This document shows, in pieces, positions 1 through 59,244 of a stretch of DNA of 64,000 bases. How positions within the stretch are numbered: the stretch's first letter is position 1; each line of letters opens with the position of its first letter. The notes beneath the pieces were generated by a model. It worked only from the letters and a program-made list of their open reading frames with translations. It was not told where the DNA came from and searched no databases. The DNA is from a virus. Lineage: Duplodnaviria > Heunggongvirae > Uroviricota > Caudoviricetes. The stretch is taken from IMG/VR virus record IMGVR_UViG_3300046692_000385; one strand, given 5' to 3'. Both the position numbers and the translations under genes were made by a program.

Positions 1-310
1 CCCTCGAGTTATCCTCGGACTTCCAGGTGACCTTGGGCATCTTGTTGATCCAGTCGCGGTCCATGGCGTACTTCAGAACCGAGTGGACGTTGGTCAACTT
101 GCGGTTGATCGTGCTGTCCTTCAGAACACCTTCCATGGAATCGACGAAGGCATCGATATGGACCGTCTTGACATCTTTGAGCGGAAGGTCACCGACACAG
201 GCGATGAAAGCCTCCACATTCGTGATGGCCGTGCTGCAGTAAGCCTTACCGAGCCACAGGGGCTTCTTGGCGATCTGCAGGAGTTCCTTGAGGGTCGTAG
301 GGGCTTTCAT
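1..310 (-). CDS. int: tyrosine integrase, N-terminal part only (continues beyond left edge)
   Basis: Minus-strand ATG at 310 preceded by GGGAGA; translation MKAPTTLKELLQIAKKPLWLG...KTVHIDAFVDSMEG...STINRKLTNVHSVLKYAMDRDWINKMP resembles the SAM-like core-binding domain of phage integrases; absent from ORF track because it runs off the window. Confidence 0.45.
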   Translation of the reverse strand, partial: MKAPTTLKELLQIAKKPLWLGKAYCSTAITNVEAFIACVGDLPLKDVKTVHIDAFVDSMEGVLKDSTINRKLTNVHSVLKYAMDRDWINKMPKVTWKSEDNSR

Positions 311-3641: not shown

Positions 3642-3685
3642 CGTGTTTTCTCCTCGAACGGGTTAAACGCTTAGTCTTGCGTCAA

Positions 3686-3701
3686 TAGTCAGTAATGACT
3701 A
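3686..3701. promoter_or_regulatory. palindromic motif TAGTCAGTAATGACTA
   Basis: Intergenic; ~50 nt upstream of ATG 3641; flanked by GTTAAACGC direct repeats. Confidence 0.5.
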
Positions 3702-3741
3702 ATGACGCAATGTTAAACGCTCAAGCTTGGGCTTGCAATGC

Positions 3742-5173: not shown

Positions 5174-5189
5174 TAATCAGTTTTGACTG
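5174..5189. promoter_or_regulatory. motif TAATCAGTTTTGACTG
   Basis: Intergenic, 27 nt upstream of ATG 5147. Confidence 0.5.
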
Positions 5190-6368: not shown

Positions 6369-7156
6369 TATGCACCCTCCTTCACTCGACGCACGGCGGC
6401 CCAGAGGACGTTCTTCACCATGTCGTAGGACACGTCCGGGTCTTTCACCTGCACGCGCGTCGTCTCACGGCTGTCGGGGTTGAAGACCAGAAAGCCGCGC
6501 GCCAGCTTCATTTTGGTGTCGCCGCTGTCGATCATGTTGCGGCCGACCTGCTTGATGATCGAGTGGCCGATCGGAGGCAGAACGTCCAGGTTGTAATGCA
6601 CCAGGTCGTAGTAGAGCTGGAACACATATTCGCGGTCTGCACCGCCCAGCACGCGCGCCACAGCAGCGAGCTTCATGGGCGCAGCCGAGAAGAACTTGTT
6701 GCAGGCGCCACACCGGGCGATCAGTTCAGCCGCCGTGTCACCGATTGCCGCATTCATGCGCTCCAGCTCCTTCGGCGTCACACGGCTGCTACCGCTCAGC
6801 ACGCGGGCTGCGAGGCGCACCACTTCCGCCTGGCGCGGTTGAATGCGAAGGATGTCGCTCGCGGTGCGGCGCGTTCCCTGGTCGAGCACGGCAAAGCTCT
6901 CTGATGGCGCATCGAAGGTCACGTTCATCGCGACCGGCATGTTTGCCGCGACGATTGCCTCGAGGCGGTGCTGGCCGTCCAGAACATTGCCGCCGGTGTC
7001 GAACGCGATCCCCTGATGCGTCTTCAGGAACTCGCCCCGAGTGATAGCATCCGCCAGATCCTTCACGTGACCGCGGCGAAGCGGGCGATTGCCGATGTTT
7101 GCCTTGAGATATTCCTTCGCCATGACGGGCGTAATTACCATTTCACGCGTGTTCAA
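6368..7156 (-). CDS. ParB/Srx-like nuclease-domain protein
   Basis: N-terminal GNRPLRRGHVKDL...IAFDTGGNVLDGQHRLEAI matches ParB N-terminal / sulfiredoxin fold (DGQHR motif). Confidence 0.6.
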   Translation of the reverse strand: MNTREMVITPVMAKEYLKANIGNRPLRRGHVKDLADAITRGEFLKTHQGIAFDTGGNVLDGQHRLEAIVAANMPVAMNVTFDAPSESFAVLDQGTRRTASDILRIQPRQAEVVRLAARVLSGSSRVTPKELERMNAAIGDTAAELIARCGACNKFFSAAPMKLAAVARVLGGADREYVFQLYYDLVHYNLDVLPPIGHSIIKQVGRNMIDSGDTKMKLARGFLVFNPDSRETTRVQVKDPDVSYDMVKNVLWAAVRRVKEGA

Positions 7157-7173: not shown

Positions 7174-7596
7174 TCAGATTTCACGAAAACTTTTGGCTTC
7201 GAGCGCCTTGCCCACGCTCGCAAACCAGTCCTGCGCCTCTTTCGCGGTGTCGAACTCTCGCACCGCCCTCTTGCCGCCAAAGCGGCCCATCCAAACCTGC
7301 TCCGCTCCCACCGTCCACGTGACTGTGGTGAGCGCCGACCCATCGGAAAACGAGCGCTTCATCTCCAGCGGCTCTGTCGGACAGAGCGCCTGCGCCTCGC
7401 TGATCAGGTCGATAAAATCCTTCTTCAAGAGCCCCGAAACCGTCATGAAAAGCACGTCGATTCCGGTGCTGAATTGGTGCGGGGTCAGGCGCCCCTGCGA
7501 CACCGCATACGTGAGCCATTCGAGCGTCTCAAACGCCTTGCGGTCGATCTCTTCCTGGAGAGTGGGTAACTCAGTTCTGACTAATTTAGCCGACAT
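7174..7596 (-). CDS. hypothetical protein (start MSAKLVRTEL)
   Basis: ATG at 7596 with GAGGGAAAA RBS; codons 4-9 contain a second motif copy. Confidence 0.45.
   Translation of the reverse strand: MSAKLVRTELPTLQEEIDRKAFETLEWLTYAVSQGRLTPHQFSTGIDVLFMTVSGLLKKDFIDLISEAQALCPTEPLEMKRSFSDGSALTTVTWTVGAEQVWMGRFGGKRAVREFDTAKEAQDWFASVGKALEAKSFREI
7569..7583. promoter_or_regulatory. motif ACTCAGTTCTGACTA (within codons 4-9 of 7174..7596)
   Basis: Second copy of pair with 7670 site. Confidence 0.4.
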
Positions 7597-7669
7597 GCTG
7601 CTTTTCCCTCTTCTCGTCTCGCGCAACGCTGCGCACAAACTGAATATTACAGATCGAAGCTAGGGAAGA

Positions 7670-7685
7670 CAATCAGTTTTGACTG
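7670..7685. promoter_or_regulatory. motif CAATCAGTTTTGACTG inside 34-bp extended palindrome CTAGGGAA...TTCCCTAG
   Basis: Followed on coding strand by TTGTCT-N17-TAATAT. Confidence 0.5.
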
Positions 7686-7710
7686 TTCCCTAGCTTTTTC
7701 CCAACAGACT

Positions 7711-10601: not shown

Positions 10602-10625
10602 GGGTTCCTCAAGTGGGATCAAAAC

Positions 10626-10646
10626 GCCCCGATCACCGACCGGGGC
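10626..10646 (-). other. GC-rich hairpin + U-tract in 5' leader (attenuator or terminator-like)
   Basis: GCCCCGG-ucggugau-CGGGGC followed by GUUUUGAU on minus strand, 25 nt downstream of motif+TATAAT. Confidence 0.4.
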
Positions 10647-10672
10647 AAACTGCATTTCAGATACTTATATTA

Positions 10673-10688
10673 TAGTCAGTTTTGACTA
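10673..10688. promoter_or_regulatory. motif TAGTCAGTTTTGACTA fused to TATAAT
   Basis: Minus strand reads AGTCAAAACTGACTATAAT. Confidence 0.55.
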
Positions 10689-10913
10689 ATACTGACCGGC
10701 TGTTTTAGACCGGGTATTGCTGATCCAGTCCGACCACGTTGCTCCACCAGTTCGCCTGCACCTTGACGAGCGCGAGTGCGGCCGGCGTGCCAAGACCCAG
10801 AAGCTTCAGGTAGGCGAACTGCAGCTCGGCGCCGGCACGAATCATCTTGAGGGCCTGCCGGTGGTGAACCGTGTCGGTCCGATCGGGGCTGTCGAGTCGA
10901 TTGGCGGTCATCG

Positions 10914-12178: not shown

Positions 12179-12189
12179 GGTTTCTCCTG

Positions 12190-12216
12190 GGAAAACTCCC
12201 CGCACGTGGCGGGGAG
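12190..12216 (-). terminator. rho-independent terminator / 5' leader hairpin after nrdA
   Basis: Perfect 8-bp stem CUCCCCGC-CACGU-GCGGGGAG followed by UUUU on minus strand. Confidence 0.55.
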
Positions 12217-12217
12217 A

Positions 12218-12233
12218 TAGTCAGTTTTGACTG
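12218..12233. promoter_or_regulatory. motif TAGTCAGTTTTGACTG between nrdA stop and hairpin
   Basis: Immediately 5' of 8-bp GC hairpin. Confidence 0.5.
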
Positions 12234-12238: not shown

Positions 12239-14509
12239 TTACTGGCAGCTTTCGCAGTTCGGGTTGTCGATGGAGCACAACGACACGCCGATGTCCTGCT
12301 CCATCACATCGACAGCAGCCGGCGCGGCCTGAGCGACCGGTGCTTCTTCCTTCGCCTTCACCGACTCGGTGCGCAGGTAGTAGGTCGTTTTCAGACCGAG
12401 CTTCCACGCCGTCAGATAGATTTCGGAGAGCACCTTGCCCTTCGTGCCAGCCTTGATCCAGATGTTGGTCGACTGCGCCTGGTCGATCCACTTCTGGCGA
12501 CGGGCGGCCGCCTTCACGATCCACATCGGGTCGATTTCGAAGGCGGTCTTGACCTTCTGACCCGGCGTGGCGTAGCGCAGGCTCGGCGCGATCACGAGGA
12601 ACTTGCCGCCCATGTTCTTCTTGCTGTGGAACAGTTCGAAGTTCGGCTCGATGCAGGGCGACACGCCGATGATGTTGCTGATCGTGGCCGTCGGCGCGAT
12701 CGCCATCGTGTTGCTGTTGCGCATGCCGTAGGTCATCACGTGGTGCGTCAACTCGTCCCAGTCATAGAGGCCCGTGCGCGACTGGTCGCGAGCGGTATCG
12801 ATCGGCAAAATCCCCTGACTCCACTTCGAGCCCGCGAACGTGCTGTAGGCACCGCGCTCGATTGCAAGCTCCACCGACGCGCTGATCGCCTCGAACGACA
12901 GGGCTTCGAGCACCAGATCGTTCATCACGAGGCACTCTTCCGACTCCCAGTCGATGTTGGACTGCGCGAGCAGGTCCGACAGGCCCATCAAGCCGAGACC
13001 CACCGGGCGGTGACGCAGGTTGGCCGTCCTGGCGCGATCGGACGGGTAGAAGTTGATGTCGATCACGTTGTCCAGCATGCGCATCGCCGTCTTCACCACG
13101 CGGCTAAAGCGCGCCGGATCGGCGATCGGGTTGACCTTCGCCACGTTCACGCTGCCCAGATTGCACACGAACGTCTCGTCCGGGCCATTGTTCAGGGCGA
13201 TTTCCGTGCAGAGGTTCGAGTTGTGGATGATGCCGACGTGCGACTGCGGGTTGCGCCGGTTCATCTCGTCCTTGAACGTGATCCAGGGGTTGCCCGTCTC
13301 GAACAAGGCGGTCAGCATCTTGCGCCAGAGCTCCACCGCCGGAATCTCACCGACGTAGGCGCCAGCCGCTTCGAGCTCCTCGTAGCGCGCTTTGAAGGCG
13401 TCGCCGTAGAGTTCGTGCAGGTCCGGGTGGCTGTGCGGATCGAAGAAGTGCCACACGCCCTTCTCTTCCACGCGCTGCATGAAGAGGTCGGGAATCCAGT
13501 TGGCCGGGAAAATGTCGTGCGTGCGCTCGTGGTCATCGCCCGTGTTCTTCTTCAGGTCCAGGAACGCCGGCAGGTCCGGGTGCCAGGTCTCCAGATACGG
13601 CGCGAAGCTGCCTTTGCGCTTGCCGCCCTGGTTCACGGCGACGGCCGTGTCGTTGTAGACCTTCAGATACGGCACGACACCGCTCGACTTGCCGTTGGTG
13701 CCCTTGATGTGGCTGTTCTTGCCGCGCACCTTCGTCCAGTCCGTGCCGATGCCGCCGGCGTATTTCGAGAGCAGCGCGCACTCGGTGATGGAGCCGTAGA
13801 TCGAGTCGTAGGGGTGGTCGCCCGGCTCCGCCACGATCTGGTCGCCCACCTGGTTGCCGTAGCAGGACGACATTTGCTGGTGCAGCGTGCCGGAGTTGAA
13901 GAGGGTCGGCGTCGAGGACATGAATTCGAAGCTCGACAGGACGTTGTAGAACTCGATGGCGCGCGCCGTCGGGTTGGCTTCGCGTAGTGCGAGACCCATC
14001 GCCACGCGCATGAAGAAGTGCTGCGGCATCTCCATGATCCGGCCGTCCGGCGTCTCGCGGATGAAGTAGCGATCGGCGAGCGTTTGCAGGCCCAGGTAGT
14101 CGAACTGGTAGTCGCGATCCGGGACGATGGCGGCATCGAGCGCGTCCAGGTCGAAGCGGCCGTCAGCCATGACTGCCGTGAGCTTGAGCGCCCCGATTGC
14201 CTCGCCGATGTAATCGCCCAGACGCGGATAGTCGATCGAGCCGACCGATTCCTTGAAAATCTGCTGCTTCAGGAGGCGCGCGGCGACGAACGTGTAGTCC
14301 GGCGCTTCGAGGCTGATCAGCCCGCCCGCGGCGAGAATGGTCGCGCGGTGGATCTGCTCGGTGCTCATGCCGTCAAACAGCATGTCGCCCACGCTCGTTT
14401 CAAGCTCGGACTGGGACACGTCAAGCCCTTCGCAGGCCCAGGCGACGCACTTCTGGATTTTCTCGATGTTCAGGGCTTCGCGCGATCCGTCGCGCTTGAT
14501 GACTTCCAT
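12239..14509 (-). CDS. nrdA: ribonucleotide reductase class I alpha subunit
   Basis: 756 aa; N-terminal ATP-cone (VIKRDGSREALNIEKI), RNR catalytic core, C-terminal CESCQ cysteine pair. Confidence 0.85.
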   Translation of the reverse strand: MEVIKRDGSREALNIEKIQKCVAWACEGLDVSQSELETSVGDMLFDGMSTEQIHRATILAAGGLISLEAPDYTFVAARLLKQQIFKESVGSIDYPRLGDYIGEAIGALKLTAVMADGRFDLDALDAAIVPDRDYQFDYLGLQTLADRYFIRETPDGRIMEMPQHFFMRVAMGLALREANPTARAIEFYNVLSSFEFMSSTPTLFNSGTLHQQMSSCYGNQVGDQIVAEPGDHPYDSIYGSITECALLSKYAGGIGTDWTKVRGKNSHIKGTNGKSSGVVPYLKVYNDTAVAVNQGGKRKGSFAPYLETWHPDLPAFLDLKKNTGDDHERTHDIFPANWIPDLFMQRVEEKGVWHFFDPHSHPDLHELYGDAFKARYEELEAAGAYVGEIPAVELWRKMLTALFETGNPWITFKDEMNRRNPQSHVGIIHNSNLCTEIALNNGPDETFVCNLGSVNVAKVNPIADPARFSRVVKTAMRMLDNVIDINFYPSDRARTANLRHRPVGLGLMGLSDLLAQSNIDWESEECLVMNDLVLEALSFEAISASVELAIERGAYSTFAGSKWSQGILPIDTARDQSRTGLYDWDELTHHVMTYGMRNSNTMAIAPTATISNIIGVSPCIEPNFELFHSKKNMGGKFLVIAPSLRYATPGQKVKTAFEIDPMWIVKAAARRQKWIDQAQSTNIWIKAGTKGKVLSEIYLTAWKLGLKTTYYLRTESVKAKEEAPVAQAAPAAVDVMEQDIGVSLCSIDNPNCESCQ

Positions 14510-14548: not shown

Positions 14549-14563
14549 AATCAGTTCTGACTG
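14549..14563. promoter_or_regulatory. motif AATCAGTTCTGACTG upstream of nrdA
   Basis: ~40 nt upstream of ATG 14509; TATCAT 3 nt after motif on coding strand. Confidence 0.5.
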
Positions 14564-15091: not shown

Positions 15092-15106
15092 GGTCAAAAC
15101 TGACTA
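15092..15106. promoter_or_regulatory. motif copy A (GGTCAAAACTGACTA) of inverted pair
   Basis: Overlaps RBS region of 14585..15079. Confidence 0.5.
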
Positions 15107-15117
15107 TGTGCATATTA

Positions 15118-15133
15118 TAGTCAGTTTTGACTG
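15118..15133. promoter_or_regulatory. motif copy B TAGTCAGTTTTGACTG fused to TATAAT
   Basis: Minus strand CAGTCAAAACTGACTATAATATGCAC then second inverted copy. Confidence 0.55.
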
Positions 15134-16713: not shown

Positions 16714-18649
16714 GTTCGGTCGCTCCTGACACCTTCGAGACGCCACCTTCCTTCTCGACCGTGATGATGTTGTCCACCCAGTCCGCCAGCGAGTTGTGGC
16801 TGATGACGAGGACCGTGCCGCGCTCGCGAGCCTTGCGTTCAAGGACGCTCATGAGGCGCTCGAGCCCTGCTTCGTCGAGCGCGTGGTCGATTTCGTCGCC
16901 GATCCAGAGGTTGATCGGCTTGGTCGCGCGCGTCGCTACCATGTCCTGCAGCGCCATTGAGGCGGCCAGGCGTGCTTTGCGCTTTTCACCGCCCGAGAGG
17001 CCCGCGAACGACTTGGCGCCCTTGTCGTTGGTGACGTCGATGTTGAACTTCTCCTTCAACTCTCCCTTCGCCGTCTTCGCGAGCGTGTTCCAGGTCGCGT
17101 GAATGTTGCCGTCGGCCAAGATGCCGAGATAGTCGGAAGTCTGCTCGTTGAGAATCGGCGTCACCGTGTCGAGGATGTGGGCGCGCACACCGGCGGGTCC
17201 GTAGACCTTGACGACGGCTGCCGCCAGCTCGACCGCTTCGACTGCCTTGTCGAGCGCAGCCTGTGCGTCACCCAGACGGTTCTCGGCCTTTTGGCGCTTC
17301 TCGCGCGCAGCAGCCTCCACCTTCGCCCAGGGGTTCTCCGCCTTCAGATGCGCGGTGGCGGCCGCCTTCAGTGCGTCAATCTGAGCGCCGAGCGTCGATT
17401 GCTGCCGCTTGAGCGTGCGAATCTCGTTCAGGGCATTGTTCAAAAGCGTGCTCTTGCGTGCCACTTCGCTAACGTCAGTCATCGACGCTTTGAACTTCGT
17501 GGCGGCTTCTTGCAGCGCTTTGAGTTCTTCCTGTCGCTCGCGAAGCGACTTCGCCACCGGCACGAGTTCGCCCTTCGTCTCGGCGATGTTTTTCACACGC
17601 GCTGCCTTCGCCGCTTCGAGGTCGTGCTCGCAATACGACTTGCCGCACTCGCCGCATGGCTTGCCAATGAGCGATTCGACTTCAGTCAGCCCCTTCTGTT
17701 GGAGTTCGAGCCGCTTCTTTCCAGCAACCAGCGTTACCGTCGTGGTGGCAATCTCGCGCTCCTTCGCCGACACCGCGCGGTTATGGTCGTCCATGAGCCG
17801 CTGCTCGGCCTTCTGGTCGTCGAGCTTCGTCTGCAGGGCGTCGATTTCGTTGGCGAGATCCACTTCGCTCGCGTGCGCGGCGATCTTTGTCTCGACTTCC
17901 TTGACCTGTGCCTGGATCGGCGGCACCTTCGCGAGCTCCAGCTTCGCGCGGTCCTTGCGCTGCGATTCGAACAGGGCCTTCTGCTCCTCTGCCGACTTCA
18001 CTTCGTCACCCGCAGCACTGACCGCGGCGATGGCGTTGTCGCGCTCGCTGCGTGCGATCTTCTCGGTGGATTCAGCGGCGAGCGCGCGCTTGCGAGCCTC
18101 CGCGTAGGCTTCGGTCAGAATCTCGACGCCGGCCGACTCCTCGATCAGCGCCTTGAGGTTCTTGTCGGTCATGCCCGGCAGGTCGGGCATTTTTTCTTGC
18201 CCAGCATATACGGCAGCCGCGAAGACCTCTTTGGACGAGCCGACGATCTTGTCGACCACCTTCTGCGTCTCCTTGTCGGTGCCCTTCGAGAGATCGTTCC
18301 AGCCAAGCGGCGTTTGTTGCTTGGCGATCAGCGCGTTCTTGATCTCCTTGCTCTTGCGACCGCGAGCAATTTCGTAGACGTGCGGACCGTCCTCGATGAT
18401 CACCGACACGTGGCAATCCTTGCCGGCGGTGTCGTTGATCACGTCATCACCCGAGACGCCACGCGCGGTTTCGCCATAGAGCACCCAGAACAGCGCGTCG
18501 ACGATGGAGCTTTTGCCCGCACCGTTGGACTTCGCTGACGGGTCGTCGAGGTTCTCGCCCTGGATGAGCAGCAGCCCGCGGTTGTCCAGCTCGAGCTTGG
18601 CTTCCCCGATCGTGAGGAAGTTTTTGATTGAAAGCGATTTGATGTCCAT
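16700..18649 (-). CDS. sbcC: SbcC/Rad50-like ATPase
   Basis: N-terminal Walker A GENLDDPSAKSNGAGKSS, long coiled coil, CGECG zinc hook-like, C-terminal signature and D-loop. Confidence 0.75.
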   Translation of the reverse strand: MDIKSLSIKNFLTIGEAKLELDNRGLLLIQGENLDDPSAKSNGAGKSSIVDALFWVLYGETARGVSGDDVINDTAGKDCHVSVIIEDGPHVYEIARGRKSKEIKNALIAKQQTPLGWNDLSKGTDKETQKVVDKIVGSSKEVFAAAVYAGQEKMPDLPGMTDKNLKALIEESAGVEILTEAYAEARKRALAAESTEKIARSERDNAIAAVSAAGDEVKSAEEQKALFESQRKDRAKLELAKVPPIQAQVKEVETKIAAHASEVDLANEIDALQTKLDDQKAEQRLMDDHNRAVSAKEREIATTTVTLVAGKKRLELQQKGLTEVESLIGKPCGECGKSYCEHDLEAAKAARVKNIAETKGELVPVAKSLRERQEELKALQEAATKFKASMTDVSEVARKSTLLNNALNEIRTLKRQQSTLGAQIDALKAAATAHLKAENPWAKVEAAAREKRQKAENRLGDAQAALDKAVEAVELAAAVVKVYGPAGVRAHILDTVTPILNEQTSDYLGILADGNIHATWNTLAKTAKGELKEKFNIDVTNDKGAKSFAGLSGGEKRKARLAASMALQDMVATRATKPINLWIGDEIDHALDEAGLERLMSVLERKARERGTVLVISHNSLADWVDNIITVEKEGGVSKVSGATERGSV

Positions 18650-20159: not shown

Positions 20160-20175
20160 TAGTCACTTTTGACTC
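20160..20175. promoter_or_regulatory. motif TAGTCACTTTTGACTC abutting sbcD RBS
   Basis: GAGTCAAAAGTGACTAAGGAGAAAGAATG on minus strand. Confidence 0.45.
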
Positions 20176-20626: not shown

Positions 20627-20642
20627 CAGTCAGGGATGACTG
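20627..20642. promoter_or_regulatory. motif CAGTCAGGGATGACTG + extended -10 TGTATAAT
   Basis: 7 nt spacing to TGTATAAT upstream of SleB-like gene. Confidence 0.55.
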
Positions 20643-22438: not shown

Positions 22439-22458
22439 CTTAGTCAGGGCCGACTAAG
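22439..22458. promoter_or_regulatory. variant palindrome CTTAGTC-AGGGCC-GACTAAG plus extra half-site GACTAAG at 22417
   Basis: Same TAGTC-N6-GACTA spacing as main motif. Confidence 0.45.
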
Positions 22459-23552: not shown

Positions 23553-23568
23553 TACTCAATTTTGACTG
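23553..23568. promoter_or_regulatory. motif TACTCAATTTTGACTG forming the whole FEN/recA spacer
   Basis: TAA-CAGTCAAAATTGAGTA-ATG on minus strand. Confidence 0.45.
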
Positions 23569-27272: not shown

Positions 27273-27288
27273 TAGTCAGTTTTGACTG
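27273..27288. promoter_or_regulatory. motif TAGTCAGTTTTGACTG 9 nt after dnaE stop
   Basis: Upstream of 26020..27204. Confidence 0.5.
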
Positions 27289-27296: not shown

Positions 27297-30665
<3,369 letters not shown>

Positions 30666-31448: not shown

Positions 31449-32102
31449 TTACAGTGTGTCGATGATGTGCCGCACTTCCCGGCCGGCAGCGGCGATGTCT
31501 TTGTGGCTGAGTTCCGGCGACACGAGCCGCAGGAACTTGCAGATGAAGGAGATGTTCACGCCCGCGCCGTTGCGACAGGCGACGCCGAGACTGCGGCTGT
31601 GATTCGCGTAGGCTTCGTGCTTGGCGATCTCAGCGAGCAGCGCCGGCGGCGGGCTCACGACCCACTCGACGATCAGGCGAGCGATCGGGCTCAAGCCATC
31701 GGTCAGCTTCCCAATCGCGGCGGCCGCTTCCTGGCGCTGCTCGAGGAACTGCTCCGGGGTCTTGGCGTCGCTTGCGATCCGCTCGACTGCGGCCATGTCC
31801 TCGTCGGTCGTCAGCTCCTCGAAGCTGCGCACGCCGTTCTCGATGCGCTCCTCCTGGACGATTGCGGCGACGCGGCCGATCTTGTTGAAGGCGGCGCGGC
31901 CAAAATACGTGCAAAACTCAAAACCCTGTTCCGGGTCGAACTTGGCGTGTGCTGCGAGAAACGCCTCACGGACGTCGCCAAACACGTCGTCGTAGTCCAG
32001 CGAGGCGCCCATCCCCTGGAGTCGTCCGTAGCACTTGCGTGCTACCTGATGGACGAACCCCAGGTTGCCCGCATAGCACTCTGCTGCGTCAGTGCTATAC
32101 AT
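31449..32102 (-). CDS. sigma-70 family (ECF-like) sigma factor
   Basis: Region-2-like ECYAGNLGFVHQVARKCYG ... YFGRAAFNKIGR and C-terminal HTH LSPIARLIVEWV. Confidence 0.5.
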   Translation of the reverse strand: MYSTDAAECYAGNLGFVHQVARKCYGRLQGMGASLDYDDVFGDVREAFLAAHAKFDPEQGFEFCTYFGRAAFNKIGRVAAIVQEERIENGVRSFEELTTDEDMAAVERIASDAKTPEQFLEQRQEAAAAIGKLTDGLSPIARLIVEWVVSPPPALLAEIAKHEAYANHSRSLGVACRNGAGVNISFICKFLRLVSPELSHKDIAAAGREVRHIIDTL

Positions 32103-33302: not shown

Positions 33303-33391
33303 GGATTCTTCTCCGTTTAGTGGTGAGTTCTTACTGAGTGCAGCAACGTTGCTGCGATATGAGAATGATAATGTCGCTTGTTCGGGAACGC

Positions 33392-33407
33392 TAGTCAGTA
33401 ATGACTG
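33392..33407. promoter_or_regulatory. motif TAGTCAGTAATGACTG inside 38-bp extended palindrome TTCGGGAAC...GTTCCCGAA
   Basis: Upstream of CobS-like gene. Confidence 0.5.
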
Positions 33408-33427
33408 TTCCCGAACAAAAACAACAA

Positions 33428-35432: not shown

Positions 35433-35447
35433 TGTCAATAGTGACTG
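35433..35447. promoter_or_regulatory. variant motif TGTCAATAGTGACTG (operator-position copy)
   Basis: Lies after candidate -10 TAGAAT upstream of CobT-like gene. Confidence 0.4.
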
Positions 35448-35486: not shown

Positions 35487-35502
35487 CAGTCATTATTGAC
35501 TA
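35487..35502. promoter_or_regulatory. motif CAGTCATTATTGACTA abutting TTGCAC-N17-TAGAAT
   Basis: Candidate sigma-70-like promoter for CobT-like gene. Confidence 0.5.
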
Positions 35503-35839: not shown

Positions 35840-35855
35840 TAGTCAGTGCTGACTA
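35840..35855. promoter_or_regulatory. perfect-arm motif TAGTCAGTGCTGACTA in divergent regulatory region
   Basis: First of a cluster of AGTCAG / CTGACT half-sites (35840-36065) ending with TGACTAGCTATAAT before HTH gene 36073. Confidence 0.5.
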
Positions 35856-36072
35856 TTTTTCACACAATTTATCGTCTTTTCTTAGCCACGCGGGATTGCG
35901 CGGTCGGTAAAAATGTATAGAATCCAAGACATAGGGAGTGTTCGTCAGTGCTGACACACGGGTATAGACGAGCGCCGTCCCACCAAGTCAGTCAATGATT
36001 ACTATCTGACTAGCTATAATCGATTCGAACAGAGTTACCGGGGCCGTCCCGCAGTCAGATAAGGAGAAAAAC

Positions 36073-36495
36073 ATGACCACGAAGAAGCAGCACAAAGAAG
36101 CCATGAGCGTCGCCGAATACTTCGACGCCCAGGTCAACCTACGCCAGATGACGCTCGCTCAGTTGAGCAAGGACATTGGGGGCGTGCTCAAGCCAAACAT
36201 GTTGTCGATGATTCGAGCGGGCCACACAAAGGTGCCGCTGATTCACGTAGGCCGCATTGCCCGAGCGCTCGGCATCGACCCGATGTTTCTGATGAAGATG
36301 GCGCTGCAGGAATACCAACCGGACAACTGGAAGGCGATTCAGGAAGTGTTCGGCGACCAGCCGGTGCTGACCCGCAATGAGATTGCCCTCATCAACGCGA
36401 TCCGCGAAGCCAACCCGAACAATCCGCGACTCAACGACGCGGACGCCGAAAAGTTCGCGAAGGTGGTGGCAACGTTGCATGGCGATAACGAGTGA
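36073..36495 (+). CDS. XRE-family HTH transcriptional regulator
   Basis: MTLAQLSKDIGGVLKPNMLSMIRAGHTKVP HTH; upstream 230 bp packed with motif half-sites; AAGGAGAAAAAC RBS. Confidence 0.6.
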   Translation: MTTKKQHKEAMSVAEYFDAQVNLRQMTLAQLSKDIGGVLKPNMLSMIRAGHTKVPLIHVGRIARALGIDPMFLMKMALQEYQPDNWKAIQEVFGDQPVLTRNEIALINAIREANPNNPRLNDADAEKFAKVVATLHGDNE

Positions 36496-36529
36496 AGTCG
36501 ATTTCATAGCGGCACGAGCAGCAAACTGG

Positions 36530-36554
36530 AAGCACCCTTCGGGGTGCTTTTTTT
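36530..36554 (+). terminator. rho-independent terminator
   Basis: GCACCC-uucg-GGGUGC followed by UUUUUUU. Confidence 0.6.
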
Positions 36555-36722
36555 ACGCCTGAACATTCAGGGGTTGGGCTCGGGACTGTATATCCATACA
36601 GTGTCGAGCCAGTGAGGAGATTGTAGGATCAAAGACAACGAAAGACAACCACTAGTTGCCATTTTGTTAGTGAATGTTTCAGAGCCTGTGACGAAAATCA
36701 CACAGCCCCAATCTGGCAGAAT

Positions 36723-37400
36723 TTACCTGATCGCCGCCGAATCCTTTAAGCTACGGCGGTCCGACCGTGTAATAACGCCCACAACACGGATCGGTTGGCC
36801 GAACGTGTCCTTGAAAACCTCGAATACTCCCTCTAGGTTTACCCCTATGTCACGCTTGTGTTCACCCTCGAAAAATACACGTGTCAATCCTTCTTGAAGC
36901 ATGCGATTGTAAAGTGCATCAACCACGGGTTTATTCTTTTCTGACAATAGGGCGCGGAAGTTTTCATGCGTTGCTTCCATACCAGGGGGTGCACAGAGGT
37001 GCTCACGTGCTAACGGACTCCAGTGGCAAACACCCGTTAGCAGGTTTTCCTCGATCACCCCGGCGTCTAATAGATTGATGGCAATGTGGAGGCGTCGTTC
37101 GCTGGCGATACAAGCTTCTAAGTAGGCTCGCCTCTTCTGAGCAAAGGCGTCATCAGGCTCTGGCTGCACTGAACGTAGTGCCTCATCCCCGTAACCTAAC
37201 CAGACCCAATTGACGTCCAAGTATTTGGAGACATCTCTCAAGCTCTTGTAATTTATTGCCCCACCCTTCAACCACTTTCCGACAGCTTGCGGAGATACTC
37301 CAATCGCTCTGGACAAAGATGCGGCAGTCTCTTGCTTGGCTTCTAGAAGCGAGCGTAGTCGTTCTGGGAAAGTGGCCTCTTTCTCAGTGGCGTTGGTCAC
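36723..37400 (-). CDS. HTH (XRE/cI-like) regulator with uncharacterised C-terminal domain
   Basis: N-terminal LRSLLEAKQETAASLSRAIGVSPQAVGKWLKGG. Confidence 0.5.
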   Translation of the reverse strand: MTNATEKEATFPERLRSLLEAKQETAASLSRAIGVSPQAVGKWLKGGAINYKSLRDVSKYLDVNWVWLGYGDEALRSVQPEPDDAFAQKRRAYLEACIASERRLHIAINLLDAGVIEENLLTGVCHWSPLAREHLCAPPGMEATHENFRALLSEKNKPVVDALYNRMLQEGLTRVFFEGEHKRDIGVNLEGVFEVFKDTFGQPIRVVGVITRSDRRSLKDSAAIR

Positions 37401-37658
37401 AGCTTCATCCTTTATTGTTCTCTCAACACGTTTGGCTTCACTACTATAGGGATAGTGATATTACTGTAACTAAATACACTTAAAAGCACTTTGGTATAAC
37501 GTGCTTTTTGTTTTTTGTCTGATAGATTCTACCCTCAGTTGGTGCACTGGAAGATCGCACGCTCCCGAGGTTGCCCTCTATATAACAATTCCCATATCTC
37601 GTTAAATCCCGAGCATTATAGAAAGCCAACTATTAGCGCACCCACCTTGCTTGCTACG

Positions 37659-37698
37659 TTGGTATTTTGGTATCTAGATACCTTGGTATCTTGGTATG
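37659..37698. repeat. candidate partition (centromere-like) site: TTGGTAT heptads around 14-bp palindrome GGTATCTAGATACC
   Basis: Four TTGGTAT copies within 40 bp plus a fifth near 37487, ~100 bp upstream of parA in AT-rich spacer. Confidence 0.4.
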
Positions 37699-37787
37699 AA
37701 GCAAGATGGCACACTTGAGAAGTTACTTGAAGACGAGCCATGTATGAATTAGGCTATGGACAAAACTTGTGATGGAGAGGGCAATCT

Positions 37788-38441
37788 ATGTCCGTTGTTA
37801 TGGTGGGAACTGAGAAGGGAGGTGTGGGCAAATCTACCTTTACACAGAACTTGGCTTCTATCCGCGCATCGCTCAAACGGCGAGTCGCCGTGTTCGACCT
37901 GGACGGGCAGAACAGCACGGCGAAGTGGGCTTCGCGTCGGGCCGATAATCCCGCCCTGGCGCCGGTCCACGTCGAGCGGTGGGAGCCGCGAACGCCGATC
38001 ACGAAGGAAGAGTTTGGCGCCGTCATCGCGCGCCTGATTGACACCTACGACGACGTTTTTATCGATGTCGGTGGGCGTGATTCGGACGGCTTTCAATGGG
38101 GCTTAGGCGTCGCTGACCGGGTGATTGCACCGCTCGTGCCGTCGCAGATGGACCTAGACACTGTGCCCGATCTTCACGCTCTCGTTGGCACCTATGCGAA
38201 GAAAATTAACCTGAGTGTGGTGCTCAATATGGCCGACAAACGCAAGCGATTCACGAAGGCGATGGTGCAGAAAATGGAGCCCTACGCCGATCGTCTCCCG
38301 CTCATGAGTCACATGGTCGCGCCGCGAGAAAGCTACAAATTCGCCAACGCTCAGGGCAGGGGAGTGGGCGAGCTTTCGGGTTCCGAGTGGGATGCCAGTG
38401 CGGCCAACGAAATGAAAGACCTATATTTGGGAACGTTCTAA
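37788..38441 (+). CDS. parA: ParA-family partition ATPase
   Basis: Deviant Walker A KGGVGKST; GGAGAGGG RBS. Confidence 0.8.
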   Translation: MSVVMVGTEKGGVGKSTFTQNLASIRASLKRRVAVFDLDGQNSTAKWASRRADNPALAPVHVERWEPRTPITKEEFGAVIARLIDTYDDVFIDVGGRDSDGFQWGLGVADRVIAPLVPSQMDLDTVPDLHALVGTYAKKINLSVVLNMADKRKRFTKAMVQKMEPYADRLPLMSHMVAPRESYKFANAQGRGVGELSGSEWDASAANEMKDLYLGTF

Positions 38442-38443
38442 TC

Positions 38444-38821
38444 ATGAGCAAAGCCAACGTGATGTCGGAGCCAAAGAGTAAGCAGTATTTGGCGGACCTG
38501 GAGGCGGTCGACACCTCGCGCTCGGCGCCTGCACCTGCTAACCCGCCCGAGAGGATTGAGGACGAGGAGGTGGTAGCACCGGCGGTAGTGACAGAGGGGA
38601 GGGCGCTTGCTCGCCCGGGGAGGGGCGTGGACTTACAAGCCCTGCGCGCCGCGCTGCCGAAGAAGGAAGCTCCGGTGCAGCAGCCGGTTCGTATTCCGCC
38701 GTCGTTGAAGGAGGACCTGACGCTGATCTGTTTCGCGCTTGGTAAGACCAAGAACGACTTCATCGTGGACATACTGCGAAAGGAAGTCGCGCGTGAGAAG
38801 AAGCGCATGGGCCTGGACTGA
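38444..38821 (+). CDS. ParG-like ribbon-helix-helix partner protein
   Basis: Start MSKANVM right after parA stop; C-terminal RHH RIPPSLKEDLTLICFALGKTKNDFIVDILRKE. Confidence 0.5.
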   Translation: MSKANVMSEPKSKQYLADLEAVDTSRSAPAPANPPERIEDEEVVAPAVVTEGRALARPGRGVDLQALRAALPKKEAPVQQPVRIPPSLKEDLTLICFALGKTKNDFIVDILRKEVAREKKRMGLD

Positions 38822-38844
38822 CCACCCTCCTGCAGACTGCTTTT

Positions 38845-39125
38845 CGGGTTTTGAGATAGGGGTCTATTGGGAGGTTTTCCGGGTTGGATCGGGTTTTGAG
38901 ATAGGGGTCAGGGTAGTTAGAAGATAGTTATAAAGGATTAGGGCCTGTGGAAAGGACTTGTAAGTCACTGAAAACATAAGCCTTTTTTTGCATGCCTTCT
39001 ATCTCAAACCCCGACAATTCCTATCTCAAACCCCGTTAGCGGCTATCTCAAAACCCGAGTTTCTATCCCAAACCCCGAACGAAAAATATCTCAAAACCCG
39101 ATAGTTATGCACATCTCAATCCGAG
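38845..39125. repeat. iteron-type replication origin: 2 inverted + 6 direct copies of TATCTCAAA(A/C)CCCG at ~22-bp spacing
   Basis: Direct copies at 39000, 39022, 39044, 39064, 39087, 39112 (last degenerate); inverted copies at 38845 and 38890; flanked by 16-bp inverted repeat GCCTTTTTTTGCATGCC (38980) / GGCATGCAAAAAAA (39145). Confidence 0.75.
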
Positions 39126-39147
39126 CCCTGCGTGCTACTTTCTCGGC

Positions 39148-39969
39148 ATGCAAAAAAACACCGCCATCGACATCCTGAAACGCCGAGAAGCCACGCAGCG
39201 AAAGGCATCGACGGCGCCCGTCCAACTGGAGTTCTGGTCCGAGAAGGTTCGTGGTCTGCCTAACACGCTCGCGCGCTGCGCGCTATTTACCGCGGCCGGC
39301 AAGAAAGAGGATCGGGCCAAATTCAGCGAGCATGTCGTTTTCTCGACCAAGGGTTTCACACTGACCTACACCGGCGAGGAACTACGTCAGGATGACCAGG
39401 ACGTTTTCCTGCAGCTCGTCCACATGACGCGCGGCATTCCCATCGGCCACAAGCTGAACGTCACGGGCTACACCATTCTGGGGGCGCTCAGTTGGGGCAA
39501 GGGCGGCAAAGACTACGCGCGCCTTCGCGAGAGCATTGAGCGGCTCTCCGACACCAGGATAAAGCTCGAAGGCGAGAACATACGCTTCAAGGGCGGATTG
39601 CTGCCCTCGATGACCCAAGTCGGTGACTCGGCTGCGAGTCGGTTTCGACTGTGGCTGGACCCGAGCGTGATCGAACTCTTTGGCGAGAACGAGTATTCAC
39701 TGGTCGACTGGGAGGATCGGCTCTCGCTGTCGGCCCTGGCGAAGTGGCTCCACAGCTTCTACTTCACGCACCGAGAGCCGCACCCATATCGAATCAAAAC
39801 CATTCACGAGCTTTGTGGCAGCCGGCAGAAGGAGCTCTGGGCCTTTAAGCAGAAGCTCAAGTTGGCGCTCGATGAACTGGTGCTGATTGGCTTTCTCGCC
39901 AAATACGAAATCCTGGGCGATCTGCTGGCCGTGCGCCGGCAGTATGCGGTTGCGGCACTTCGCAACTAA
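39148..39969 (+). CDS. TrfA-like plasmid replication initiator
   Basis: LPNTLARCALFTAAG segment typical of TrfA family; immediately downstream of iterons. Confidence 0.55.
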   Translation: MQKNTAIDILKRREATQRKASTAPVQLEFWSEKVRGLPNTLARCALFTAAGKKEDRAKFSEHVVFSTKGFTLTYTGEELRQDDQDVFLQLVHMTRGIPIGHKLNVTGYTILGALSWGKGGKDYARLRESIERLSDTRIKLEGENIRFKGGLLPSMTQVGDSAASRFRLWLDPSVIELFGENEYSLVDWEDRLSLSALAKWLHSFYFTHREPHPYRIKTIHELCGSRQKELWAFKQKLKLALDELVLIGFLAKYEILGDLLAVRRQYAVAALRN

Positions 39970-40348
39970 CCGTCCAGCGCCCGACCCTACTTATGCACAG
40001 AAACGGTGGACAACCCTGTGGAGCAATGATCGATGCTGGTCGACGTCTCCCCGATGCGTGAGCGCGGCAAGGCACTGCCTCAACACGCCGTGCAGAGCGG
40101 CCCGGCGGTCCACGGCGATCTTGTGATCGGCCAGGAGAAATCCTCCGCACTCAACCGCTACACCAACATCGCACGCTTCCAGACGGCAGGCGCCACCGAT
40201 CCGCAGCCACTTCCGTCGCTTCACGACGCCGCGCTTTCCTGGATGGGTCCGCTTGGGTTCGTCCTGACGGGCGTGGAATTCGTCGACGGCACTGCTTACT
40301 CACAGTCTTGGTGGTGCCGTCCGAGCTAGACGGAGGCCCGACGGGATC

Positions 40349-41642: not shown

Positions 41643-41744
41643 AATGACCCCTCCGGTTGACGCGAACGGCCAAGCAAACCCGGTGCCCGCGCATCAAAAT
41701 GATCCGCCCCAAAACGTTGCTAATGAAACGCCCGAGGATGAACT

Positions 41745-42050: not shown

Positions 42051-42245
42051 ATGGGAAATATGTGGACTGAGCCTGCCGTCAGCGGGCACGACACGAAGGA
42101 AGAAGCCGAAGCCTACGACAAGTGGTTCCGCGAAGAGGTGCGGCTCGCTCTCGAAGAGGATGCGCCGAGCATTCCGCACGACGAGGCTGTTGCAATGTTG
42201 CGCGCCCGGGCCGCGGAGCGAAGGAAGGCGCAGAATGATCGTTGA
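42051..42245 (+). CDS. type II antitoxin (ParD/RelB-like)
   Basis: Start MGNMWTEP with GTGAGG RBS; 11-nt overlap with toxin gene. Confidence 0.5.
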   Translation: MGNMWTEPAVSGHDTKEEAEAYDKWFREEVRLALEEDAPSIPHDEAVAMLRARAAERRKAQNDR

Positions 42246-42507
42246 CTGGCGCCCGCGCGCCTTGCGCCGCCTTTACCAGATCCACGAACACATCAGCCAA
42301 GACAGCATCGACGCCGCAGATTTCGTGCAGGAGACGATTATTTCGGCGGCGGCCGATCTGCCCGCCCATCTCTACGTCTACCGCGAAGGTCGTGTGCCAA
42401 ACACGCGGGAGATGGTCGTGCTGCCGAACTACATCATCGTCTATCGGATCAAGAAGGATCGAATCGACATCGTGAACGTCCTGCACTCGCGGCGACGCTA
42501 CCCATGA
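42235..42507 (+). CDS. RelE/ParE-family toxin
   Basis: MIVDWRPRAL...IIVYRIKKDRIDIVNVLHSRRRYP ParE/RelE fold signature. Confidence 0.65.
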   Translation: MIVDWRPRALRRLYQIHEHISQDSIDAADFVQETIISAAADLPAHLYVYREGRVPNTREMVVLPNYIIVYRIKKDRIDIVNVLHSRRRYP

Positions 42508-43635: not shown

Positions 43636-44300
43636 GCCGCCACCTGCTGGATCGGGTGTGCACCGTCGAGCCCGAGCACGCGCGCCTTGATGACGCGCAC
43701 GACCGAATCCTCGTTGTCGCGGTTGAAGACCGGCACGTAGACGTCAATGTCCTCGCCGCCGGCGACCTTTGCCCAGTGCTGCTCGGTCGTGAGCATCTCC
43801 TTCATGCGACCGGCATAGTTCTTCACCACCGCGGCCGCTGCTGCCGGGTCTTTGTGGATCATCGCTTCGGCGATGTCGATGCCCGCACGCTTGAGAAATC
43901 GCTCGGCGATGACTTCAGGCGGATTGTCCACGTAGACCGAGACGTGCGGCACGTCGTTCTTCTTGGCCCACTCCCTGATCTGGCGCATACCGATCGGCTC
44001 GCAGACGAGCACGACGTCACTGCCGTCCACGAACGCCTGGCGCGCTTCCTTCTCGGTCAGGCCGTAGTGGTTGCTGCCGAACTTCACGTGCTCGATGAAG
44101 GCGCCCTGCGCTTCGAGACGCTTGAACTGGCTGCCATCCACGAAGTGATAGTTCTTGCCGTCGACCTCGCCCGTGCGCGGAGTGCGGGTCGTGGTGCTGA
44201 TGAGAGCCGCAAATCCCTCGCCGCGCAGCAAGCCTTCGAGGGTCGTTTTGCCCGAGCATGTCGGGCCAGTGAGGGTGACAATCGTGCGCTTAGTCAGCAT
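43632..44300 (-). CDS. guanylate-kinase-like nucleotide kinase
   Basis: GPTCSGKTTL P-loop and TTRTPRTGEVDGKNYHFV; start codon embedded in motif copy. Confidence 0.6.
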   Translation of the reverse strand: MLTKRTIVTLTGPTCSGKTTLEGLLRGEGFAALISTTTRTPRTGEVDGKNYHFVDGSQFKRLEAQGAFIEHVKFGSNHYGLTEKEARQAFVDGSDVVLVCEPIGMRQIREWAKKNDVPHVSVYVDNPPEVIAERFLKRAGIDIAEAMIHKDPAAAAAVVKNYAGRMKEMLTTEQHWAKVAGGEDIDVYVPVFNRDNEDSVVRVIKARVLGLDGAHPIQQVAA

Positions 44301-44508
44301 TGACTTTCTCCTGCGGCGCCACTTTGAGCGCCAGTTTGTTCGTGATGACCTCCAGGAAGCGGCACATCGTGATCAGGTCCACCTCCTGGTTCTGGTTGTT
44401 GACGACGACGATGCGCCCGCCGATCATGCCGGGCCCGGCCGGCAGAATGTGGTGCCGCCAGGGCATCGTCGCTTGCAGCGCCTTGAATTCCTTCTCATCC
44501 ATTTCCAT
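44290..44508 (-). CDS. hypothetical small protein
   Basis: 72 aa. Confidence 0.3.
   Translation of the reverse strand: MEMDEKEFKALQATMPWRHHILPAGPGMIGGRIVVVNNQNQEVDLITMCRFLEVITNKLALKVAPQEKVNAD
44291..44305. promoter_or_regulatory. motif TAGTCAGCATTGACT overlapping gmk-like start codon
   Basis: GGAGAAAGTCAATGCTGACTAAG on minus strand. Confidence 0.4.
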
Positions 44509-47807: not shown

Positions 47808-47823
47808 TAGTCAGTTTTGACTA
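47808..47823. promoter_or_regulatory. motif TAGTCAGTTTTGACTA fused to TACAAT
   Basis: Minus strand TGACTACAAT. Confidence 0.55.
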
Positions 47824-51011: not shown

Positions 51012-51027
51012 TAGTCAGTTTTGACTA
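51012..51027. promoter_or_regulatory. motif TAGTCAGTTTTGACTA fused to TATAAT (contains stop codon of 51025..51783)
   Basis: Minus strand CATTAGTCAAAACTGACTATAATG; upstream of Hfq-like gene. Confidence 0.55.
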
Positions 51028-52990: not shown

Positions 52991-53005
52991 ACTCAGTTTT
53001 GACTG
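52991..53005. promoter_or_regulatory. motif ACTCAGTTTTGACTG followed by TAATAAT
   Basis: Upstream of phoH. Confidence 0.5.
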
Positions 53006-55160: not shown

Positions 55161-55175
55161 AGTCAGGTTTGACTA
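55161..55175. promoter_or_regulatory. motif AGTCAGGTTTGACTA
   Basis: Upstream of Gly-rich fibre gene. Confidence 0.45.
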
Positions 55176-55619: not shown

Positions 55620-55660
55620 CTAGAGGCTCCTGTTTGAGTGTCTGAAATATACCACGAAAC

Positions 55661-55674
55661 AGTCAGTTTTGACT
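55661..55674. promoter_or_regulatory. motif inside perfect 10-bp-arm palindrome GAAACAGTCA-GTTT-TGACTGTTTC
   Basis: Stop codon of upstream gene lies in first arm; TATATT follows 4 nt after on coding strand. Confidence 0.5.
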
Positions 55675-55677
55675 GTT

Positions 55678-58811: not shown

Positions 58812-58825
58812 AGTCAAAACTGACT
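58812..58825. promoter_or_regulatory. motif copy A (AGTCAAAACTGACT) of inverted pair
   Basis: Abuts start of lysis-cassette first gene. Confidence 0.5.
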
Positions 58826-58833: not shown

Positions 58834-58848
58834 AGTCAGTTTTGACTA
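58834..58848. promoter_or_regulatory. motif copy B AGTCAGTTTTGACTA
   Basis: 8 nt from copy A, opposite orientation. Confidence 0.5.
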
Positions 58849-59228: not shown

Positions 59229-59244
59229 TAGTCAGTTCTGAGTG
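59229..59244. promoter_or_regulatory. variant motif TAGTCAGTTCTGAGTG
   Basis: 22 nt upstream of ATG 59205. Confidence 0.45.

Follow-up and report, generated by a model that had tools for sequence, protein, structure and literature searches.

A palindrome recurs about 30 times in the 64,000 nucleotides of viral DNA analyzed here (IMG/VR record IMGVR_UViG_3300046692_000385, hereafter the window), a stretch that is part of a phage-plasmid of ∼115 kb (115.6 kb). The recurring motif, TGACTATAAT, is the right arm of this palindrome, which is 14-16 bp long and overlaps the -10 box of promoters. The palindrome is probably the operator of an element-encoded, dimeric repressor, a putative Xre/Cro-type protein that would silence nearly all of the lytic units. 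This is a familiar kind of control, in a phage-plasmid family that is abundant but uncharacterized.

The parent palindrome reads (T)AGTCA(A/G)AACTGACT(A) or, written as an inverted repeat, (T)AGTCA(A/G)-AA-CTGACT(A), and its ∼30 copies compare with 0.24 expected in 64 kb. The 14-mer AGTCAAAACTGACT, with up to two mismatches allowed, has 26 matches against the same expectation of 0.24, and 24 of them are on the minus strand; AGTCA-N4-TGACT has 18 perfect copies, TAGTC-N6-GACTA has seven, and the 19-mer AGTCAAAACTGACTATAAT is found three times, at 10674, 15119, and 51013. The centers of the half-sites are 9 bp apart, about one helical turn. As for the form in which the right arm runs into the -10 box, TGACTAYAAT, there are six exact matches, all on the minus strand (10669, 15114, 25983, 35836, 47804, and 51008), against 0.02 expected from dinucleotide-preserving shuffles. 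A previous reading of the window, made from the sequence only, had counted seven copies of this form: it listed five of the exact ones and missed 35836; its copy at 52991 is a one-base variant, TGAGTAATAAT, with the -10 one nucleotide further on; and the copy it placed at 20627, with an extended -10 after 7 nt, is at 20628 and has 6 nt between it and the TG and 8 nt between it and TATAAT.

A position weight matrix (PWM) scan of the window returned ∼30 distinct sites, all intergenic except those at 7569 and 44292 (Table 1), and nearly every copy is on the gene strand. The distance to the upstream stop codon is 1-61 nt (median of 17) and that to the next start codon 7-90 nt. Almost every genuine minus-strand intergenic gap holds a site, including 21 of the mapped gaps of at least 35 nt, and early, replication, lysis, head-like, and tail genes are preceded alike. 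In the plasmid module (36.1-42.5 kb), the same scan found no site at all.

How are these sites placed with respect to the promoters? With the offset taken as the distance of a -10-like hexamer from the first base of the operator, the high-scoring hexamers occur at discrete values, 14-15, 23-24, and 36-39, and others lie upstream of the site. This gives at least four registers, with the operator centered at about -41.5, -27.5, -18.5, and +2 to +13. Offsets 14-15 comprise 10674, 15119, 25988, 35841, 47809, 51013, 14549, 52991, and the inverted copy 58812; at offset 14, operator position 14 supplies the T at -12, which puts the center at -18.5 (at offset 15, -19.5), and the palindrome, correctly placed near -19 by the sequence-only reading, overlaps a genuine and conserved -10 hexamer. 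Offsets 23-24 are found at 20628 and 55661, and offsets 36-39 (center ∼-41.5) at 7671, 27274, 33393, 47809, 35488, and 58834. Among the latter are the two copies described before as abutting a -35, TTGTCT-17-TAATAT at 7671 and TTGCAC-17-TAGAAT at 35488, and the idea that one regulator site is common to several promoter geometries has likewise held. At 59230, a TATAAT lies upstream of the operator, which is therefore at about +6. Finally, six to eight sites have no recognizable -10 (3687, 5175, 12219, 20161, 22442, 23554, and 55161), with the following start codon just 7-11 nt away in two cases; these are candidate elongation-block sites, similar to stoperators.

Several promoters are bracketed by two operators (35488 and 35433, 15119 and 15092, 58834 and 58812, 7671 and 7569); the first two stand on either side of TGCACA-16-TAGAAT. 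Such flanking pairs, together with three sites beside the putative repressor gene, are classical repressor layouts, and every register, from -48 to +20, is within the footprint of RNA polymerase, as fits occlusion by a repressor. With at least four registers and all gene classes involved, the data argue for this rather than for activation from a fixed position, so that an activator-dependent promoter, favored in the previous reading, is not retained as the main mechanism. Nor is a MerR-like promoter, which requires a -35 and a spacer of 19-20 bp: both are absent, and no MerR-family protein is among the 38 window proteins scanned.

The quality of the promoters deserves attention. At eight fused sites, the best -35 match at a spacing of 16-18 nt has a mean of 2.75 of 6 positions against 2.33 at random positions, none being above chance, and visual inspection at longer spacing revealed no -35 either, in agreement with the previous reading. 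The TG at -15/-14 of an extended -10 is also absent from the fused sites, which have GA instead since the TG of TGACT is one base too far upstream; TGn is present only at 20628 and 55661. At the sites abutting a -35 position, the -35 hexamers are weak (2-4 of 6). In the window, the promoters with the best -35 hexamers are those of 35841 and 35488, both leading into the operon that holds a sigma-like gene, an arrangement that would fit a cascade. Scans for canonical sigma-70 promoters and for terminators gave background levels overall and, taken alone, do not validate the promoters. GC hairpins with T-runs, resembling terminators, occur at 10625-10647 and 12180-12218, in the order promoter, hairpin, ribosome-binding site; that after the 10674 promoter is kept in two relatives, and they could be attenuators, short RNAs, or 5' stabilizers.

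Conservation offers a further line of evidence. Several relatives in IMG/VR, 110-117 kb long, have a nucleotide identity of 70-85%; their orthologous intergenic sites keep the palindrome together with a -10-like hexamer close by, with diverged flanks. In three distant relatives (L075, L080, and L105), the palindrome at the site orthologous to 47809 is inverted, still beside TACAAT, which indicates that the arms matter and not the orientation of the spacer. Among the 44 distinct 14-mer variants of the clade, changes in the arms break the pairing 15 times, give a G-T wobble seven times, and are compensatory once; the RNA hairpin that the palindrome could form has only -3.2 kcal/mol. Uncompensated arm changes and a weak hairpin point to a constraint on double-stranded symmetry, as expected for a dimeric DNA-binding protein.

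The layout extends beyond the clade: in five lineages, a 12-16 bp palindrome has its right arm running into a -10 hexamer, and the half-sites differ. Acinetobacter baumannii plasmids of the Mu1956 type have AGTCAGTACTGACT+ATACT, and Acinetobacter plasmids of the ZW85p2 type have AGTAAGCGCTTACT+ATAAT. The Salmonella element has (A/G)TAAGTACTTAC, once inside a proper TTGAAA-17-TATCAT. In Cupriavidus, GTCAGT-N4-ACTGAC stands mostly just after TATACT, hence over the start site, most sites beginning 1-4 nt after a -10; here the capsid, portal, and terminase genes are also preceded by sites. Between the two Acinetobacter backbones, the replication proteins are 40-80% identical and the Xre proteins only 30%. 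Two palindrome specificities in one host species imply that the binder is encoded by the element, and a site for a host factor was ruled out by the coexistence of the two operator types in Acinetobacter elements.

A lytic relative, Pseudomonas phage nickie (L136), shares the replication gene order and has neither the Xre/ParA/TrfA block nor a recurrent palindrome, a joint absence that was counted in favor of an Xre repressor. Its intergenic regions hold -10-like hexamers (TATACT, TACAAT, and TATCAT) with no -35, between GC-rich inverted repeats of 7-8 bp that differ by site (6955-6981, 12573-12603, 17087-17118, and 36541-36572), an architecture unlike that of the window.

Which protein, then, binds the palindrome? 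Most likely it is the putative 140-residue Xre/Cro-type helix-turn-helix (HTH) protein, whose gene is divergent from the lytic strand. Its only Pfam match is HTH_3, at 23.2 bits (cutoff of 23; E = 7e-5). The AlphaFold model has a pLDDT of 77-88 over residues 11-80 and a C-terminal half that is helical and of low confidence. The N-terminal 65 residues of the model superimpose on 434 Cro with a root-mean-square deviation of 1.3 Å and 30% identity over 63 columns, and the comparison with the DNA-binding domains of 434 Cro, 434 cI, and P22 c2 gives TM-scores (target) of 0.83-0.85. These three proteins bind inverted repeats of 14-18 bp as dimers. Syntenic Xre homologues exist in all five lineages, and close ones are present in Caballeronia; another, on a Lichenihabitans plasmid, is not on a phage-plasmid, and no operator was identified there.

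The region between the Xre gene and the first minus-strand open reading frame (ORF) adds to the case. It contains three operator-like sites, of which one is fused to the TATAAT of a lytic-strand promoter and another lies just upstream of the TATAAT that serves the Xre gene (35841, 35943, and 35990 in Table 1). They are conserved in two relatives (L126 and L127), and the elements of Cupriavidus, of Salmonella, and of the two Acinetobacter types have two or three sites in the equivalent region, where the promoter of the Xre gene is itself operator-fused.

From this fold, the synteny, and the layout of the sites, we infer both the identity of the binder and its repressive action. While the element is a plasmid (prophage), the ∼30 operators in the 64 kb, in almost every lytic-strand intergenic gap, would be occupied by the repressor. 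At some nine fused sites (center -18.5), the bound dimer would cover the spacer and the -10 and exclude RNA polymerase; at others, the operator would act by abutting the -35, from a position 8-9 nt ahead of the -10, or from just beyond the start site, with several promoters bracketed by two operators. Sites without a recognizable promoter could act as roadblocks, and autoregulation, together with control of the first lytic promoter, would come from the three sites that stand between repressor gene and first lytic gene. In this manner, the 115-kb phage genome would be kept silent during plasmid maintenance.

Several observations sit less comfortably with repression. The AAAC center is on the gene strand in 22 of 24 strong copies (binomial p = 3.6e-5), and a symmetric dimer site needs no such bias; related elements nevertheless use perfectly symmetric sites, and an orthologous promoter tolerates the inverted copy. 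Three lineages share offsets 14 and 36-37, a regularity beyond what simple occlusion requires, and a center at -41.5 is a classic activation position. The firing of the fused promoters once derepressed is not accounted for, as they have no -35. The Xre protein has no S24 peptidase (autocleavage) domain, which bears on the route of induction. Across the five lineages compared, recognition helix and half-site do not correspond cleanly: a "Pro vs Gln" rule for the helix, suggested by four of them, failed in Salmonella. Last, the sigma-like protein is 28% identical between the two Acinetobacter types against 30% for Xre; it diverges as fast, so that divergence alone does not single out Xre as the binder.

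Perhaps the same dimer does both: it would repress over the -10 from -18.5 and activate from -41.5 by contacting RNA polymerase, in the way that lambda CI activates at PRM, thus switching between two promoter sets. This gives a definite form to the suggestion in the previous reading that two promoter classes have one regulator site in common. The two discrete offsets of the window (14-15 and 36-37), their recurrence in both the Mu1956-type and ZW85p2-type elements, the weak -35 hexamers of the sites with the upstream operator, and the presence of -10 hexamers at both offsets for site 47809 speak for this possibility. It is unlikely, though: the best of these promoters, 35488, is followed by a further operator at about +7 to +20, and 7671 by a downstream site, which is a layout of repression; the genes concerned are of lytic replication (CobT/CobS-like, sigma-like, and DnaE), which a lysogeny repressor is not expected to activate; and the Cupriavidus sites mostly overlap the start site.

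Alternatively, palindrome and TATAAT might together form a promoter-specificity element that replaces the -35 and is read by a phage activator or by the sigma-like protein. The latter is a divergent member of the sigma-70 family: the match covers positions 4-127 of a 165-position model of the extracytoplasmic function (ECF) type at a score below the cutoff, with no region 4 detected. The lack of both -35 and extended -10 at the fused sites, the conservation of this gene in the Burkholderiaceae, Cupriavidus, and Acinetobacter elements, a fused register kept across five lineages, and the -35-less hexamers of nickie are in line with such an element. Yet the register varies, sites are also found past start sites and within an ORF, the site is symmetric and suited to a dimer, unlike sigma recognition elements, and the mixture of early, lysis, and structural genes defines no temporal class. 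In addition, the Xre gene's own lysogeny-strand promoter has the same fused layout, a MerR-type protein is missing from the scanned set, and the Salmonella SSU5-like element has the fused arrangement with a proper -35 and no detectable sigma homologue. Homologues of the sigma-like protein were found only in Cupriavidus and Acinetobacter phage-plasmids, tblastn gave no match among phages, and nickie gp102, which occupies the same gene position, has no detectable similarity to it. On balance, the specificity element is quite unlikely, and the structural description in the sequence-only reading was right while its preference for an activator, MerR, or sigma mechanism is less likely than a repressor operator. 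The reading of the -10 itself is a separate matter: the sigma-like protein is predicted to be one that may read the -35-less hexamers, or else the host sigma-70 uses the fused promoters inefficiently.

A composite of these ideas can also be drawn. The sigma-like protein would read the -35-less hexamers and the Xre dimer would gate them from the two conserved registers, -18.5 and -41.5, and would form an orientation-dependent roadblock at intergenic sites that have no promoter, giving a stoperator-like circuit of silencing and activation common to the SSU5/'AB'-type phage-plasmids of Acinetobacter, Salmonella, Cupriavidus, and Burkholderiaceae. The whole of this circuit is improbable.

Very improbable is that the palindrome works as structured nucleic acid, i.e., as a hairpin with a 5-bp stem and an AAAC loop, formed in RNA or by extruded single-stranded DNA and serving as a processing site, protein-binding stem-loop, or N4-like hairpin promoter. 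The strand bias, the loop sequence conserved in the clade, and four sites at the apex of longer palindromes with partly covarying arms would suit a hairpin. However, the arm-variant counts and the low stability led to rejection of the RNA form, relatives have an inverted copy or other center sequences, no Rfam family matched in the window, and many copies would lie upstream of the start site, where the adjacent promoter would not transcribe them. Weakest of all, and hardly credible, is a strand-specific DNA signal outside transcription, for instance one for nicking, known from T5 and phage tf, or for priming or packaging: one strand is used throughout in a large siphovirus-like genome, but the sites are coupled to conserved -10 hexamers and clustered beside the Xre gene, their orientation can flip, the motif changes between heteroimmune-looking relatives in one host, and no nicking enzyme was identified.

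Two features near the operators are worth recording. The four longer palindromes (3677-3710, 7661-7696, 33384-33418, and 55655-55680) have site-specific outer arms (TTGCGTCA/TGACGCAA, GCTAGGGAA/TTCCCTAGC, TTCGGGAAC/GTTCCCGAA, and GAAAC/GTTTC) that are partly maintained in orthologues and are not accounted for by a plain dimer operator. A second palindrome, of the GCAACGTTGC type, occurs at 7623-7632 and 33343-33352, 10-25 nt downstream of the -10 of two promoters with an upstream operator, and is kept in orthologues; considered as a second regulator site, it is not enriched in the window (six matches against 3.8 expected). As for the operator palindromes, neither sequence was found in the searched literature, and we found no published description of the motif or of lysis-lysogeny control in these phage-plasmids.

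With regard to the element itself, the window has 61% G+C and a phage backbone of replication, lysis, and tail genes, broken by a plus-strand block at 36073-42507 with Xre-HTH, ParA/MipZ, TrfA, and ParE toxin. Directly upstream of trfA, five direct repeats TATCTCAAA(A/C)CCCG, spaced by 20-23 bp, form iterons at 39000-39106, and two inverted copies are at 38844 and 38889. TrfA, iterons, ParA, and synteny with real circular plasmids identify it as a phage-plasmid; the syntenic plasmids are NZ_CP090528.1 of Cupriavidus metallidurans (106 kb), more than 150 Acinetobacter plasmids of ∼110 kb, and an SSU5-like Salmonella plasmid. The 19-mer is also present in a metagenome-assembled genome of Paraburkholderia, and a nucleotide search of a phage collection gave no close relative. 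Other encoded proteins include a class I ribonucleotide reductase (RNR), SbcC/Mre11-like, CobT-like, CobS/MoxR-like, Hfq-like, and PhoH-like proteins, the divergent sigma-70-family protein, ligase, primase, a DnaB-like helicase, endolysin, and tail fiber. The DnaE-type polymerase (27297-30665) carries a C-terminal domain of the uracil-DNA glycosylase superfamily (residues 973-1071). Between the Xre gene and parA, 1.3 kb (36496-37787) have no confident gene, and the corresponding gap in Cupriavidus is 0.44 kb. Short direct repeats (GAACCCAAGTC twice and GCGGACCCAA twice) lie beside an AT-rich stretch at 51840-51887, in a gap with no operator that separates the gene 51025-51759 from the PhoH-like gene 52194-52952; they might be a lytic origin or another protein-binding array.

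Table 1. Operators, operator-like sites, and genes discussed in the text (class A, operator fused to the -10; class B, operator abutting the -35 position)
Positions	Strand	Feature	Remarks
3687..3700	-	Operator	No clear -10; apex of longer palindrome
5175..5188	-	Operator	No clear -10
7569..7582	-	Second operator, ∼100 bp downstream of 7671	Just inside next ORF; kept in three relatives
7671..7684	-	Class B operator	Abuts TTGTCT-17-TAATAT (center ∼-41)
10674..10687	-	Class A operator AGTCAAAACTGACT	T14 is first base of TATAAT (10669-10674); kept in relatives L003/L006
12219..12232	-	Operator	Between RNR stop codon and GC hairpin with T-run; no -10
14549..14562	-	Operator AGTCAGAACTGATT	TATCAT one nt further on (offset 15); upstream of RNR large subunit gene
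15092..15105	+	Inverted second operator, 13 nt downstream of 15119 operator	Spans ∼+2 to +15 of the 15119 promoter
15119..15132	-	Class A operator	Fused to TATAAT (15114-15119)
20161..20174	-	Operator	Directly abuts Shine-Dalgarno of next gene; no -10
20628..20641	-	Operator AGTCATCCCTGACT	Then 8 nt, then TATAAT (TGTATAAT); center -27.5
22442..22455	-	Weaker intergenic site AGTCGGCCCTGACT	PWM scan
23554..23567	-	Operator	7 nt from next start codon
25988..26001	-	Class A operator AGTCAATCCTGACT	Fused to TATAAT
27274..27287	-	Class B operator	-10-like TATCAT at offset 37 (center -41.5)
31449..32102	-	Divergent sigma-70-family protein	Region 2 only detected
33393..33406	-	Class B operator	TATCAT at offset 37; upstream of MoxR/CobS-like and sigma-like genes
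35433..35446	-	Partner operator AGTCACTATTGACA, 55 bp from 35488 operator	∼+7 to +20 of 35488 promoter
35488..35501	-	Class B operator	Abuts TGCACA-16-TAGAAT; upstream of CobT-like gene
35841..35854	-	Class A operator AGTCAGCACTGACT	Fused to TATAAT (GTGAAA-16-TATAAT); first site of divergent immunity-type region
35943..35956	not assigned	Second operator-like site CGTCAGTGCTGACA	Divergent region
35990..36003	+	Third, weaker site AGTCAATGATTACT	Just upstream of Xre gene's plus-strand TATAAT (36015-36020)
36073..36495	+	Xre/Cro-type HTH protein, 140 aa	Candidate binder; divergent from lytic strand
37788..38441	+	ParA/MipZ	
39148..39969	+	trfA	
42235..42507	+	ParE toxin	
44292..44305	not assigned	Site AGTCAATGCTGACT	At gene junction
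47809..47822	-	Operator	Fused to TACAAT; further TACAAT at offset 37
51013..51026	-	Class A operator	Fused to TATAAT; precedes Hfq-like, DnaB, and primase genes
52991..53004	-	Operator AGTCAAAACTGAGT	-10-like hexamer at offset 15; upstream of PhoH-like gene
55161..55174	-	Operator AGTCAAACCTGACT	No clear -10
55661..55674	-	Operator	Then 9 nt, then TGGTATATT; apex of longer palindrome GAAAC..GTTTC
58812..58825	+	Inverted operator of 58834 pair	TATCAT at offset 15 on gene strand
58834..58847	-	Upstream operator of inverted pair	Before holin-like and endolysin genes
59230..59243	-	Operator ACTCAGAACTGACT	12 nt downstream of TTTTCA-18-TATAAT (∼+6)

How does such a repressor operator compare with known systems? 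In chemistry, a 14-bp palindrome bound by an HTH dimer, as in 434 and P22, is the closest. The candidate binder has the Xre/Cro-type fold of the 434 and P22 repressors and Cro; as in 434, the site is an inverted repeat of 14 bp in which the outer arms are conserved and the center varies, the operator overlaps a -10, and three sites lie in a divergent control region. Unlike 434, which has six operators in two clusters, the window has its ∼30 dispersed over 64 kb; the half-site sequence is another, the S24 autocleavage domain is absent, which also sets the protein apart from lambda CI/LexA-type repressors, and the prophage is a plasmid.

In function, the closest counterparts would be the C1 operators of P1 and the operators/stoperators of cluster A mycobacteriophages. 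C1, which is not known to be an HTH_3 protein, recognizes asymmetric 17-mers as its operators. The window shares with P1 the silencing of many separate lytic operons in a plasmid prophage, presumed here; its sites, instead, are symmetric (14-16 bp) and far denser, and the candidate binder is of the HTH_3 type. No homology of the Xre candidate to C1 was seen, although no direct search for it was made. P1 is itself a plasmid prophage, in which the master repressor C1 binds operators scattered over the genome beside many promoters (PMC8198154). As for the cluster A phage L5, more than 20 stoperator sites occur in promoters and short intergenic spaces, with an orientation that correlates with transcription (PMC9283540), which recalls the shared orientation of 22 of the 24 copies and the occupation of almost every intergenic gap in the window. 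In L5, however, a monomer uses two domains to bind its asymmetric 13-mer sites, whereas those of the window are palindromes of the dimer type whose orientation is not conserved in relatives (perfect palindromes or an inverted copy). Because the site is symmetric and the protein fold differs, the candidate belongs to neither the C1 nor the L5 repressor family.

A last comparison concerns the late promoters of P1 that depend on Lpa, which have a good -10, no -35, and an inverted repeat just upstream. The fused sites resemble them in having a -10 without a -35 and a palindrome in its place. They differ in that the palindrome of the Lpa-dependent promoters stands at one fixed position before late genes only, while in the window the register varies and all gene classes are served. 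Lpa is the late promoter activator of P1 (PMC8198154).

What would follow from these findings? Phage-plasmids of ∼105-115 kb are common in clinical A. baumannii, where more than 150 PLSDB records carry the Xre homologue, and the family is also present in Salmonella and Cronobacter (SSU5-like), Cupriavidus, and Burkholderiaceae. With a defined operator and a candidate repressor, essentially all lytic promoters could be placed on a testable map, and a sequence-based prediction of immunity groups would follow, with AGTCAG-, AGTAAG-, and GTCAGT-N4-type operators. The pair would also offer handles for curing or inducing these plasmids, and the operator/-10 unit would be a compact cassette with which to build synthetic control into non-model Proteobacteria. 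For the biology of the family, the finding extends the strategy of many dispersed operators, known from P1 and L5, to another large group of elements, and does so with an ordinary 434-like dimer site.

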